The notes under the pieces: model-generated
Seen by the model: only the letters and a program-made list of their open reading frames with translations
What the model was told of the DNA's origin: nothing
The model's database searches: none
From: an uncultured Erysipelotrichaceae bacterium
Lineage (GTDB): Bacteria; Bacillota_I; Bacilli_A; RF39; UBA660
Assembly: GCA_902783895.1 (NCBI GenBank)
Contig: CACZST010000009.1
Location: 1 to 49,162, forward strand
DNA length: 49,162 nt
Direction: 5' to 3'
Position numbers and translations under genes: made by a program
Part shown: positions 7,682-12,223 of the stretch, in pieces
Layout: each line of letters starts with the position of its first letter
Numbering within the stretch: position 1 is the first letter of the stretch

Positions 7682-8712
7682 ATGAAAAAGATTTATATTT
7701 TATTACCATTAATGTTATTGACTATTATGCCTATAAATGTCAGCGCAAGTAGTGGAATGCTTAAAAAAGGTTCTATTAAAACTTGTCCTGATGGCATAAC
7801 CTACGGTATGCATAGTAACCATTGGCATAAAGCTGTTACTAATGGGGACAATTATTACTCAAGTGGGGATGCTATTGCTTATGACCCATGCCCTTCCTCA
7901 AATGAAAATAAAGGTACTGCAGGACAAACGTCTGGAAATACAAATAATTCAAGTTCTAACGCAAATAACAACTATAATTCTAATACACCTAGTTATTCAA
8001 ATAATAATTCAAAAAACAATTCAAGTAATAATTCGAACAATAATCATCAAACTGAAAAAAGCATTTTAGCTAAAACAATAAACAATAATAAAAGTAATGA
8101 TAACTCATTAAAAAAAGTAACTATAGATGGAATTAATATAAAAATGTCTGAAAATATGTCTTATGAAACAACTAAAAAAAATATAGACATTAATATAACA
8201 CCAAACTCAGAAAAAGCAACAGTTTCATTTAATCCTATAGAATTAAAAACAGGAGAAAATATAATAGACATCAATGTAACTGCAGAAAATGGTGATACTA
8301 AAAAATATACATTAACAAAATAAAAGGAAAAGGAAATGCAAAAATTACCGAATTTATATTAGATAATAATAAAGTTGACTTTGAAGACAATAAAGCAACA
8401 ATCCAAAAAGATCCAGATAAAACAGTATTAAATTTTTACTATAAACTAAATAATCCAAAAGCAAAATTGGTTATCTATCACAACAACAAAGAAACTAACA
8501 TCTTAGAAAATGTAAAAGAAAATGATATAATTAAACTATTAGTAATTGATGAAAATGATAACGAAAATACCTATGAAATAAAAATAGAAAATGAATCATT
8601 CCTTGCCACATTAATTGCATATTATATATTAATTGTTCCAATAACCAGTGCAATAATATTATTTATAATTTATCATAAAAAAAGAAAAATAGACAAAGTA
8701 AAAACATCATAA
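7682..8712 (+). pseudogene. frameshifted membrane-anchored surface protein (signal peptide, Cys/His N-domain, Asn/Ser linker, cadherin-like beta-sandwich x2, C-terminal TM)
   Basis: ORF 7682-8323 stops at ACAAAATAA; the -1 frame is open from ~8320 (IKGKGNAKITEFILD...) into ORF 8467-8712, which ends in TM+KKRK; VTAENGDTKKYTL is cadherin-like. Confidence 0.75.
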
Positions 8713-8916: not shown

Positions 8917-8926
8917 GATTACATAA

Positions 8927-9001
8927 TGGAGCAAATGACCGGAATCGAACCGGCATCTTAGCCTTGGCAAGGCCATATACTAACCGTTGTACTACATCTG
9001 C
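8927..9001 (-). tRNA. tRNA-Gly(GCC)
   Basis: GCAGATGTAGTACAACGG...CCTT-GCC-AAGG...GGTTCGATTCCGGTCATTTGCTCCA. Confidence 0.96.
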
Positions 9002-9107
9002 ACGACTACTTAATTATATAATATTTTACTCAAAATGTAAATAATTATACTAAAATAATTGAAAAAAAATCAATTTACGCTATAATACATAACCAGGAGA
9101 TGAAAAC

Positions 9108-10094
9108 ATGTCTAAAAATGAATTATTAAAAAAATTTGGTTTCACCAAAAGCCAAATAAACACTATTACAAATAGCTACATCATCAAAACAATAAATAGC
9201 AAGTTACTTGAAACAAAACTTAATGAAAATATTTCATACTTAAATAAAGTATATAGTCCAAAAGAAGTTAATAAAATTATCACAAATAATCCCGGAATAT
9301 TAATAATGACTATAGAAAGTATGATTATTAAAAAAGATAACTTTATAAATAACGGATATAAAAATGAAGAAGTTAAAGAAATGATTAAAAAATATCCAAG
9401 ACTATTCACATTAAGCACAGAAAAAATTCAAAATATAATAATACTATTTAAAAGTTTAAACATGGAAGAAAGCCAAATAATAAATATAACAGTCAAATGT
9501 CCTCAAATATTTGGTTATAGTTTAGAAAATATAATATATAAAATTAATTATTTTAAAAATAAAGGTTTTTCTAAAAATCAAATAACAAAAATGATAAACT
9601 TATGTCCACAAATACTTAGTCTTTCTAAAAATAATTTAAACAGTTCATTTAATTATCTTAAAAGTAAAAATTATAGTGAAAATGATATAATTACTCTACT
9701 TTCTAAATGCCCAAACGTACTTACTAAAACAATAAAAAAATTAGAATCTATAAGAAATTTATTTCTAGACTTAAATTATACAGAAGGAGAAATTAATAAA
9801 TTAACTATAAAATGTCCTGCTTTATACCTATACGGTAAAGAAAATTTAAAAGAAAAAATATCAGTATTTATAGAAAATGATTTACTATATCAAATAAAAG
9901 ATAATCCTAATGTATTAAGGCAAAGTGCTCACCTAACATACTCTAGATTAAAGTTTTTTAAATCTTTAAAAAATTTTAAACTAAGCAAAAAAACACATAA
10001 ATATATATTTTTAGATAAAACAAATTTCAAAAAACATTTTAAAGTTGAAAATGAAAAAATATTAAAAAAATACCCATACAAAAAACGGAACTAA
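9108..10094 (+). CDS. mTERF-like tandem helical repeat protein
   Basis: Six ~35-aa repeats of xxIxxxIxxxPxILxxSxxxLxxxxxxFxxxGYS plus a terminal PNVLRQS...SRLKFF unit; very basic; TATAAT and AGGAG upstream. Confidence 0.75.
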   Translation: MSKNELLKKFGFTKSQINTITNSYIIKTINSKLLETKLNENISYLNKVYSPKEVNKIITNNPGILIMTIESMIIKKDNFINNGYKNEEVKEMIKKYPRLFTLSTEKIQNIIILFKSLNMEESQIINITVKCPQIFGYSLENIIYKINYFKNKGFSKNQITKMINLCPQILSLSKNNLNSSFNYLKSKNYSENDIITLLSKCPNVLTKTIKKLESIRNLFLDLNYTEGEINKLTIKCPALYLYGKENLKEKISVFIENDLLYQIKDNPNVLRQSAHLTYSRLKFFKSLKNFKLSKKTHKYIFLDKTNFKKHFKVENEKILKKYPYKKRN

Positions 10095-10108
10095 GTCCGC
10101 TTTTTTTA

Positions 10109-10492
10109 CTATTTAATTTCAATAACAGTATTTGATTTTTTAGTTTTTTCTTCAGGTAAAGTTACCTTTAAAACTCCATGTTTAAATTCAGCTTTAATTT
10201 TAGATTCATCAATATCACCTACATAAAAGCTTCTTGTTGAAGTTCCGTAAAATCTTTCATGACGAATATAATTCTTTTTACTTTTATCTTTACTATCTTC
10301 TAATGTAGCAGTTAAAGTTAAGTAACCATTATCATATTCTACTTTAACATTATCTTTATCTAAACCAGGCATATCAGCCTCAACTATATAATTTCCATCT
10401 TTCTCGTATACATCACATTTTAAGTCTGTATCTGAATTCATAAAATTATCAAACACATTATCCAAATCAAATCTTTTTGGTAACATTCTCAT
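10109..10492 (-). CDS. Hsp20/alpha-crystallin small heat shock protein
   Basis: DVYE...ADMPG...ER.YG...RSF...A.FKHGVL.VTLP. Confidence 0.93.
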   Translation of the reverse strand: MRMLPKRFDLDNVFDNFMNSDTDLKCDVYEKDGNYIVEADMPGLDKDNVKVEYDNGYLTLTATLEDSKDKSKKNYIRHERFYGTSTRSFYVGDIDESKIKAEFKHGVLKVTLPEEKTKKSNTVIEIK

Positions 10493-10582
10493 ATTTAATT
10501 CCTTCTTTCTACAGCTTAATCATAACACTAACATCAGTAATAATCAATGAATATCACAAAGGTTTCATAATAAAAAGCGAGA

Positions 10583-12223
10583 TTATTTAATAACCTCATT
10601 TATTCTATTTATAACCCTATCTTTTCCAAATAATCTCATAATTTCATATAAATCTGGAGTATTACATTTACTTGTTAAACTAACTCTAATAACCGTACTA
10701 AAATCAGCTATACTTCCTTTATATTTATCTGGATTTACCTTATATTCTTTCATATCACCAGCATAATTTAAACTAACGGCTGCCTCTTTCATATGATCAA
10801 ACCAACTATTTTTATCATCATCAGGATTATAATATTTTAAATATGTATTAAGAACTTCTTTTATATCATCCTTAGAATTAATTTTTTGCCATTCATAATT
10901 TACTGGTTTATAAAGTTCATCGTACATATACCATACTTGACTTTTAATCTCACTAAAATTTGCAATATCTTTTCTAGGCTTCTTTTGCTCTCTTTCAATA
11001 TTAAATATACTTACCGAATAATCCTTATACTTTTCTAAAAGTAAGGCAAAATCTTTATCATATTCTAAAGCATGATTTAGTGCCATATCATAAACTTCAA
11101 TAGCCTTTAACTTACTTATATAGTTTTTAGATATACTAATAAGTTTTTCATGATCAAATAAAGTCCCACCAATTGGCATCTTTTTAAAATCTAACTTAAA
11201 CTCATCAGGATTAGCATCCTTATTTTGAAGCATCCACATTTCAAAATTACTATTGGCAATCGTTTCTAAAAATAACATAAGCGCTCCATAAGGAATTCCC
11301 TTCTCATGATAATAACTAATTGCTGCTTCAGGATCTTTTCTCTTACTAAGTTTTCTCTTTTTACCGTCCTCTTCAATACAAATTGGAGATATATGGGCAT
11401 ACTTAGGAGTCTCAAAACCAAGCATTTCAAAAAGTTGAACATGAACTGGTATACTAGAAAGCCACTCATCACCTCTAATAACATGAGTAGTTCCCATTAA
11501 ATGATCATCAACCGCATGCGCTAAATGATATGTTGGAAGATCATCAGATTTCAAAATAACAATATCTTGATCATTTTCTGGAAATTCCATTTTACCTTTT
11601 ATCTCATCTTTAAATTTAAAGTGATGATTAAAATTACCCTTAGATTTTAACCTAATAATATACTTTTCACCATTATTAATTTTACTGATTACCTCATCCA
11701 TAGAAAGTCTTCTACATCTAGCCCAAATACCATAATAACCTAATCTTTCCTTATTTAAAGCTTGTCTGTCATGATCATGTTTTAACTCTTCCTCAGTGCA
11801 GAAACATGGATAAGCCTTATCTTCTATAATTAATTTCTTAATAAAAGCTTTATAAATATCTCCTCTTTTACTTTGCATATAAGGTCCATAATTTCCTTTA
11901 TCACCATCTAAAGTAACACCTTCATCAAAATTAATATTAAATTTAGCTAAATCTTCTATTATTCTTTCTACACCATTTTCAATTGTTCTTTTTTGATCAG
12001 TATCCTCTATTCTAAGAAAACATACACCATTAGTTTGCTTGCTCATCTTTCTAGAAATAAAAGATGTATATAATGCTCCTAAATGAACATATCCAGTTGG
12101 ACTAGGTGCATACCTAGAAACTATAGCTCCTTCTGGTAAATCCCTTTTTGGATACTTATCTTCATAATATTTATAATCGTGTTCATTTTTTACTAGTAAA
12201 TCTGCATATTCTTCTCTTGTCAT
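10583..12223 (-). CDS. gltX: glutamate--tRNA ligase
   Basis: RYAPSPTGYVHLG, RIEDTD, THVIRGDEW, KLSKR. Confidence 0.95.
   Translation of the reverse strand: MTREEYADLLVKNEHDYKYYEDKYPKRDLPEGAIVSRYAPSPTGYVHLGALYTSFISRKMSKQTNGVCFLRIEDTDQKRTIENGVERIIEDLAKFNINFDEGVTLDGDKGNYGPYMQSKRGDIYKAFIKKLIIEDKAYPCFCTEEELKHDHDRQALNKERLGYYGIWARCRRLSMDEVISKINNGEKYIIRLKSKGNFNHHFKFKDEIKGKMEFPENDQDIVILKSDDLPTYHLAHAVDDHLMGTTHVIRGDEWLSSIPVHVQLFEMLGFETPKYAHISPICIEEDGKKRKLSKRKDPEAAISYYHEKGIPYGALMLFLETIANSNFEMWMLQNKDANPDEFKLDFKKMPIGGTLFDHEKLISISKNYISKLKAIEVYDMALNHALEYDKDFALLLEKYKDYSVSIFNIEREQKKPRKDIANFSEIKSQVWYMYDELYKPVNYEWQKINSKDDIKEVLNTYLKYYNPDDDKNSWFDHMKEAAVSLNYAGDMKEYKVNPDKYKGSIADFSTVIRVSLTSKCNTPDLYEIMRLFGKDRVINRINEVIK

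Follow-up and report, generated by a model that had tools for sequence, protein, structure and literature searches.

An mTERF-family helical-repeat protein encoded in the small genome of a gut Bacilli bacterium

Eukaryotic mTERF proteins, a family of repeat proteins known from mitochondria and chloroplasts, bind RNA as often as DNA, and several of them, including MTERF3, MTERF4 and the mitoribosomal protein mS93, are associated with the ribosome. Plant mTERF9 is an RNA-binding factor with a role in ribosome assembly or RNA maturation. TALE-like proteins are built differently, from two-helix units of 33-35 residues that carry a hypervariable di-residue.

In prokaryotes, the closest described proteins are pTERF1 and pTERF2, which are mTERF-like and bind double-stranded DNA in a sequence-specific manner (Hu et al., Nucleic Acids Res 2024;52:10464; PMC11417379). 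In that report, pTERF1 binds ACTNNNAGTC with a Kd of 1.87 nM and pTERF2 recognizes a different motif, the affinities being nanomolar (PMC11417379). A literature search on pTERF and on bacterial or prokaryotic mTERFs returned just this paper. Literature on plants and mitochondria still takes bacterial genomes to lack mTERF genes, as a plant paper from 2026 reports (PMC12977773).

The locus described here lies in a contig from an uncultured gut bacterium; the whole stretch of 49,162 nucleotides that was analysed is referred to as the window. An earlier note, made from the sequence alone, had read one of its open reading frames as a bacterial mTERF-like protein.

Repeat organization and family membership

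The mTERF-family ORF (9108..10094, plus strand, stop codon included) is an uninterrupted reading frame of 328 codons for amino acids, and both peptides quoted in the earlier note are present in its translation. Six regular units of 35 residues (residues 34-243; 9207..9836, plus strand) hold a Pro at constant register, and the invariant Pro that had been noticed in the tandem units recurs with exact spacing at residues 62, 97, 132, 167, 202 and 237. These are followed by a seventh, shorter unit (residues 244-273), in which Pro 267 falls within the segment PNVLRQS, and by a C-terminal cap and tail (residues 274-328; seventh unit and tail together 9837..10091, plus strand). The count of six put forward in the note holds for the regular units but not as a total, since the predicted structure contains about eight three-helix units plus the C-terminal cap. 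The 35-residue periodicity is far beyond chance: when the protein is compared with itself, 49 of 208 residue pairs are identical at offset 35, a value reached in none of 5000 composition-preserving shuffles (mean 18.3, sd 4.0), and the other offsets, 28-34 and 36-42, give 9-21 identical pairs. Tandem Repeats Finder reported no DNA-level repeat matching the protein units, which points to units that are old and diverged.

The product is rich in Lys (16.2%), Asn (12.2%) and Ile (12.2%), with a pI of 9.78 and a net charge of +31 (58 Lys and Arg vs 27 Asp and Glu). Neither a transmembrane segment nor a hydrophobic signal core is present, the highest 19-residue Kyte-Doolittle mean being 1.08, in agreement with the initial description of a Lys-rich protein lacking both. 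All the cysteines of the protein (131, 166, 201 and 236) stand just before the conserved Pro of four consecutive units, in the contexts KCP, LCP, KCP and KCP (codons 9498-9500, 9603-9605, 9708-9710 and 9813-9815); positional orthologues retain one of the four only.

On the combined evidence of profile, comparison with the sequences of solved structures and predicted fold, the window protein is a true member of the mTERF family. The Pfam mTERF profile (PF02536) matches with an E-value of 1.6e-32 and 113.1 bits against a cut-off of 23.1, and the alignment extends over nearly the whole protein, from residue 5 to 297 on profile positions 2-301 of 314. Among NCBIfam models, none matching the mTERF family was found. 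A phmmer comparison with PDB chains retrieves MTERF3 (1e-13), Tetrahymena mS93 (2.7e-9) and MTERF1 (1e-8), and also MTERF4. When the window protein is combined with 15 same-genus relatives that are 24-36% identical to it, the resulting 16-sequence profile finds MTERF3 at 6e-23 and MTERF1 at 2e-22 among PDB sequences. On MTERF1 this profile covers chain residues 40-339 of 343 and reaches profile position 346 of 361; the C-terminal "FL....F...F" tail also aligns with the C-terminus of the human protein. Five residues, Q272, R280, F307, F311 and Y322, are invariant in the 16 same-genus sequences.

The AlphaFold2 model derived from the 16-sequence alignment (pLDDT 94, pTM 0.85) predicts a regular helix-helix-short-helix pattern, with approximately eight units and a cap stacked into a superhelical solenoid. 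Foldseek comparison of this model with the PDB gives 17 matches at E-values of 0.001 or less, all with the mTERF fold (MTERF1, MTERF3, MTERF4 and mS93), and the best of them is DNA-bound MTERF1 (E 3e-9, TM 0.72-0.76). TALE and BurrH proteins trail, with E-values of at least 3e-3 and TMq values of at most 0.47. The two comparisons that the earlier note had proposed, with the Pfam profile and by AlphaFold and Foldseek, thus bear out its assignment, and the better fit to another solenoid that it had named as counter-evidence is not seen, since mTERF-fold matches lead and TALE/BurrH matches are weaker.

At the level of the single unit, the protein shows the mTERF motif as it is defined in PMC11417379, with about 30-35 residues, a conserved Pro and hydrophobic residues at regular spacing: the Pro is found in six units, and the consensus derived from same-genus relatives reads L..KF..L..LGYS..EI..MT...P.LF.YS. 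Classical mTERFs are nuclear-encoded and targeted to organelles, whereas this gene is located on a bacterial chromosome and the profile match of its product begins at residue 5. Organellar targeting reflects where the family was first found and is not a definition of homology.

Locus, distribution and rate of evolution

A gene for tRNA-Gly(GCC) (8927..9001, minus strand) lies 106 bp upstream of the mTERF ORF and diverges from it, as originally noted. On the other side, the gene for the small heat-shock protein Hsp20 (10109..10492, minus strand; PF00011 at E 3.5e-19) is convergent, and beyond it lies a 546-aa ORF (10583..12223, minus strand) identified as glutamyl-tRNA synthetase (gltX) from reading the sequence alone. 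Upstream of the tRNA, a 213-aa ORF (7682-8323) shows a signal-like N-terminus, a long Asn/Ser-rich low-complexity stretch and a weak Cadherin-like match only (E 0.007); the next ORF, of 81 aa (8467-8712), has a hydrophobic C-terminal segment, and neither of the two is assigned to a family.

The mTERF ORF is preceded by a promoter-like site, TTGAAA-16-TATAAT (9059..9086, plus strand), which matches the consensus at 11 of 12 positions. This is a consensus match only and weak evidence alone, because 20 such sites are seen in the region vs 15.3 expected. A ribosome-binding site, AGGAG (9095..9099, plus strand), can be read directly off the sequence 8 nt before the ATG. Folding reveals a short hairpin (10080..10106) that is bordered by runs of A and of T and whose loop contains the stop codon of the mTERF ORF (-6.0 kcal/mol on the plus strand, z -2.7; -10.4 on the minus strand, z -3.65); it is a possible two-way terminator common to the mTERF gene and the convergent hsp20. 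A terminator scan found nothing after the mTERF ORF. The gene had been credited with its own promoter, ribosome-binding site and terminator; the first two stand, as a promoter-like site and an AGGAG, but the terminator is reduced to a weak hairpin that is shared with hsp20 and was missed by the scan. In a single metatranscriptome run only short dissimilar pieces fall over the mTERF ORF, and hsp20 is represented by one perfect 148-nt piece, which speaks neither for nor against expression.

The host genome (1.04 Mb in 51 contigs, estimated to be 78% complete) contains a single PF02536 match. The GC3 of the gene, 13.1%, lies within the 11-21% range of the 31 other ORFs examined, which upholds the view that its AT-rich composition is native to the host. 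Two loci from the same genus, L048 and L049, share the arrangement of the window, with gltX, hsp20, a convergent mTERF gene and a divergent tRNA-Gly(GCC). Taking together GC3, promoter-like site, ribosome-binding site and conserved position in three genomes, the gene is native and bacterial; the reading of the ORF as an mTERF-like protein in a bacterium is sustained by profile, predicted fold, native GC3 and bacterial locus alike. The gene is also stable within the species: near-identical DNA occurs in public runs of 12 studies, and a contig of 2420 nt from a mouse-gut run spans 8925..10500 with 9 differences.

In most of the other species in the genus the gene sits elsewhere, between a small membrane protein and nusB-xseA-xseB, and encodes a protein of 355-366 aa (416 aa in L052). 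This placement is found at 16 of 16 loci, plus L052, and the identity of the nusB neighbour is confirmed by PF01029 at 2.2e-34. The same site is empty in the window's own genome, where the membrane-protein gene is directly followed by nusB. Further positions are occupied by the copies at L050 (between recO and a class II tRNA synthetase), L056 (adjoining recO) and L051 (after rpoC and smc, ahead of an ABC-F gene). A single locus is present in 14 of the 15 positive genomes of the genus, and G012 has two. In five genomes of the genus that lack the gene, hsp20 was located, but the gene order around it is not conserved, so that no scar of an insertion or deletion can be read.

The mTERF gene is an accessory gene with a patchy distribution within one family of gut Bacilli with genomes of approximately 1 Mb. 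Of the 36 further genomes of the genus that were surveyed, 15 contain a PF02536 match; across the survey as a whole, a match occurs in only 7 of the 39 genomes with a completeness of at least 90%. An even sample of the class yields matches above the cut-off in 6 of 49 same-family genomes and in none of 349 genomes from 29 other families, where five genomes outside the family give sub-threshold matches of 16-19.5 bits. A phylum sample yields 2 of 16 genomes of the family and none of 382 genomes of other families, and no match is found in the 14 control genomes.

An exhaustive profile search of 1.84 billion protein representatives retrieved 4835 proteins with E-values of 0.001 or less, 2216 at 1e-10 or less and 365 at 1e-30 or less. 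Among the best 150 matches, 136 show a bacterial-type build (AT-rich amino-acid make-up, no N-terminal extension, at most 520 aa) and 13 a eukaryote-like make-up, three being named plants; these labels are assigned from composition, not taxonomy. The 136 bacterial-type relatives have a median pI of 9.0. In the ESM Atlas, where the window protein is present, several Bacillota clusters of 51-198 members are automatically named "mTERF domain-containing"; the exact protein is absent from a collection of 15 billion proteins. A word-indexed protein search returned plant mTERFs as 10 of 10 hits (22-30% identity), and its profile version 4 hits, although this search says little on bacterial relatives because it is swamped by low-complexity words. 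A scan of a genome collection with the window protein alone gave no relative, whereas a closer alignment of 10 sequences did find relatives.

Genome G577 (1.2 Mb) contains 31 PF02536-matching stretches on at least 6 contigs (C22, C26, C1, C8, C14 and C132), and nine consecutive mTERF ORFs of 208-368 aa occupy one 13-kb contig (L046, 1-9234). Although it is labelled Muribaculaceae, its nearest genomes include G380 (the same as G613), from the window's own Bacilli family, so that the label looks wrong. In four other genera of the family, a long mTERF protein of 310-438 aa is directly followed by an mTERF-like protein of 127-139 aa with a pI of 4.1-4.4 (L055 6304-7903, L056 5854-7254, L057 5976-7671 and L058 6343-7630); two of these four small acidic partners were run against Pfam, and both match PF02536. 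Two mTERF matches from other genera of the family (G198:C8:17261-17794 and G212:C5:32757-33251) each contain a single in-frame TGA, which could mean that the gene is broken, that two genes adjoin or that the stop is recoded.

The gene evolves three- to four-fold faster than its neighbours, is much less constrained than they are and is still under purifying selection. Between the window and L048 the mTERF proteins are 36% identical, compared with 84% for gltX, 64% for hsp20 and 67% for a LytR-type protein; the gltX of the window is 83-84% identical to the L048 and L049 copies. Overall, dN/dS is 0.13-0.40 for mTERF genes vs about 0.02-0.13 for nusB, xseA, gltX and hsp20, and at the nusB-linked loci it is 0.16-0.40 for mTERF and 0.04-0.13 for nusB and xseA. 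The mTERF genes of L048 (7064-8086) and L049 (7054-8100) differ with a dN of 0.12 and a dS of 0.93 (dN/dS 0.13), the latter being four to six times above the dS of three flanking genes (0.16-0.21). This discrepancy suggests that the mTERF allele was replaced by recombination.

The relation to eukaryotic mTERFs was addressed with a quick maximum-likelihood tree of 91 rows, which comprise 19 bacterial-locus sequences, 38 bacterial-type representatives (a random draw from those of 290-450 aa), 31 plant or eukaryote-like domain pieces and 3 sequences of uncertain origin. All 31 eukaryote-like pieces fall on one side of a branch with an SH-aLRT of 99, and the bacterial rows are not nested within angiosperm MTERF5-like proteins. 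The window protein forms a clade with L048, L049 and P0015, which is near-identical to L049 (support 98). Since the tree is unrooted and includes no animal or protist mTERF, the donor of the family is not inferable from it, and it neither supports nor excludes either direction of transfer.

Proposed function and alternative readings

The function that we favour, held with slightly more than even confidence and by analogy with characterized relatives, is that of a sequence-specific DNA binder, with RNA as the less likely ligand, acting as a regulator or roadblock. Family, fold, charge, native setting, patchy distribution, changing position and fast evolution under purifying selection are results of the analysis, and from them and from the relatives we infer nucleic-acid binding, the preference for DNA over RNA and the action as roadblock or regulator. 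The product is, on this reading, a cytoplasmic, strongly basic and all-helical mTERF solenoid of a gut Bacilli bacterium that has a genome of about 1 Mb and lacks Rho. Its concave, positively charged face would wrap double-stranded DNA, as proposed by analogy with human MTERF1 and with pTERF1 and pTERF2, the only bacterial relatives whose binding has been tested, and the side chains on either side of each unit's conserved Pro would read a specific site. Once bound, the protein may act as a transcription regulator or as a roadblock (terminator). Its gene is an accessory and rapidly diverging one and not that of a core housekeeping factor.

Two base-flipping residues of MTERF1 can be located by comparing its wild-type and mutant chains: R162 is at Pro-2 of its unit and F243 is at Pro+1 of its own. 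At Pro-2 the window protein carries N, K, K, L, K, K and D, and at Pro+1 G, R, Q, Q, N, A and N, so that 10 of the 14 residues are K, R, Q or N. These side chains, mostly basic or amide, appear suited to contacts with an AT-rich duplex, and with the net charge of +31 they give an indirect indication of nucleic-acid binding. Among 13 nusB-linked orthologues no sharp hypervariable "code" position is found, the variability being spread over exposed unit positions. A Rho RNA-binding domain is detected in none of 37 genomes of the genus, gene-positive and gene-negative alike, in 2 of 24 genomes from other genera of the class and in 9 of 14 control genomes; as Rho is missing both with and without the mTERF gene, the two are not linked.

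Fold similarity does not separate RNA-binding from DNA-binding mTERFs, and the alternative that survives best, though unlikely, is that the protein binds RNA and serves in ribosome assembly or in the maturation of RNA, in the manner of MTERF3, MTERF4-NSUN4, mTERF9 and mS93. MTERF3 is the best PDB sequence match (1e-13, or 6e-23 by profile), with mS93 and MTERF4 also matching, the gene is located directly upstream of nusB in most species of the genus, and elsewhere the gene is found next to a class II tRNA synthetase, an ABC-F protein or rpoC. However, housekeeping genes are most neighbours anyway in genomes of 1 Mb. Furthermore, a core ribosome factor fits poorly with a gene whose distribution stays patchy when only genomes of at least 90% completeness are considered, that leaves the nusB site empty in the window's own genome and that diverges far faster than nusB, xseA and gltX.

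As in many alpha-solenoids, the protein might instead be a scaffold or adaptor for other proteins, with no nucleic-acid ligand. The long mTERF proteins of other genera (three of four basic; L057 with a pI of 5.3) adjoin an acidic mTERF-like partner of about 130 aa, which implies that mTERF units can pair with proteins in these bacteria. No such acidic partner is seen in the window genome, whose assembly, estimated to be 78% complete, has one PF02536 match, and both the net charge of +31 and the closest structures, which are nucleic-acid binders, make this role improbable for the window protein.

More doubtful still is a role in defence or as part of a mobile element, with the gene moving from site to site. 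Such a gene would account for the different sites in related genomes, for the replacement of alleles suggested by the L048-L049 comparison (dS 0.93 vs 0.16-0.21 in the flanks) and for the tandem arrays in one genome of the family; against it, no match is found in 50,697 phage records, in 72,556 plasmid records or in viral contigs, PADLOC gives no match for the 3 of 3 proteins tried, and no integrase, transposase or nuclease gene adjoins the copies whose neighbours were annotated. Mis-binned plant or protist DNA, or a very recent functionless transfer, has in its favour the exclusive plant hits of the word-indexed search (10 of 10, 22-30% identity), and is hardly credible for a gene flanked by a tRNA and hsp20/gltX inside a bacterial contig of 49 kb, with native GC3, a bacterial promoter-like site and ribosome-binding site, positional orthologues at a dN/dS of 0.13, and plant and eukaryote-like rows set apart from bacterial-type rows (SH-aLRT 99).

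Comparison with known systems

The implication in the earlier note that a bacterial mTERF would be new does not hold: pTERF1 and pTERF2 were published in 2024 as prokaryotic mTERF-like proteins (PMC11417379), and Bacillota clusters already bear the automatic name "mTERF domain-containing". The 2024 paper established prokaryotic mTERF-like proteins, so the window gene is a further example and not the first; individually, it adds one member to a group that has been described before. Together with its relatives it shows that one family of gut Bacilli with small genomes possesses mTERF proteins of fully canonical type, which diverge quickly, shift chromosomal position and in places form arrays. 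This offers a tractable bacterial setting in which to ask what an mTERF solenoid recognizes and whether the family is older or younger than organelles.

A wider reading, combining lineage and function, goes beyond the DNA-binding role favoured above and is speculative, with the odds clearly against it. Under it, the canonical-motif bacterial mTERFs would be an old sister group of the organellar mTERFs, with no recent import from plants, and would at the same time serve in Rho-less, reduced gut Bacilli as rapidly re-targeted, sequence-specific DNA roadblocks. The residues near each conserved Pro would give every allele or paralogue a site of its own, and a single genome of 1.2 Mb contains as many as 31 matching stretches. 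If true, these proteins would offer a clue to the origin of the organellar family and would amount to a compact, naturally occurring set of programmable DNA-binding tools.

Returning to the window protein as a probable DNA-binding mTERF, the described systems resemble it to different degrees. TALE and BurrH proteins are likewise bacterial superhelical repeat proteins that track the DNA groove, but their repeat is of another type: the window protein has predicted three-helix units, matches them weakly in structure and lacks a single hypervariable "code" position. Among the named hits of the word-indexed search, plant chloroplast MTERF5-like proteins are the best (22-30% identity, with 54-69% of the query covered); unlike the window protein they carry N-terminal extensions (275-511 aa overall), and they occupy a separate, well-supported side of the tree. 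MTERF3, MTERF4-NSUN4 and Tetrahymena mS93 belong to the same Pfam family, with MTERF3 as the best PDB sequence match, but they are conserved core factors acting on rRNA and in ribosome assembly, whereas the window gene is patchy and fast-evolving. Human MTERF1, a mitochondrial transcription termination factor (PDB 3mva, 3n6s), shares the predicted fold (TM 0.72-0.76), an aligned C-terminal tail and a basic concave face. By contrast, identity is only about 18-20%, the units of MTERF1 are irregular and contain insertions, the window protein has no aromatic residue where the aromatic base-flipping residues F243 and Y288 of MTERF1 align, and MTERF1 is nuclear-encoded with a presequence.

As published, pTERF1 and pTERF2 come, like the window protein, from Bacillota genomes of animal-gut metagenomes (PMC11417379), and they too consist of tandem three-helix mTERF-like units (3-11 per protein) with no organellar targeting; the window protein is likewise a prokaryotic protein of tandem mTERF-like units. 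The same published description presents pTERF1 as devoid of the conserved Pro and the hydrophobic heptads and as 9-18% identical to eukaryotic mTERFs (PMC11417379). Measured against that description, the window protein differs in having the Pro in every regular unit and a Pfam mTERF match at 1.6e-32. Given that pTERF1, so described, lacks the Pro/heptad signature, the pTERF precedent may belong to a different bacterial branch. The window gene, judged by its sequence, is an unusually canonical example of a bacterial mTERF, in which the classical Pro and hydrophobic signature has been kept.
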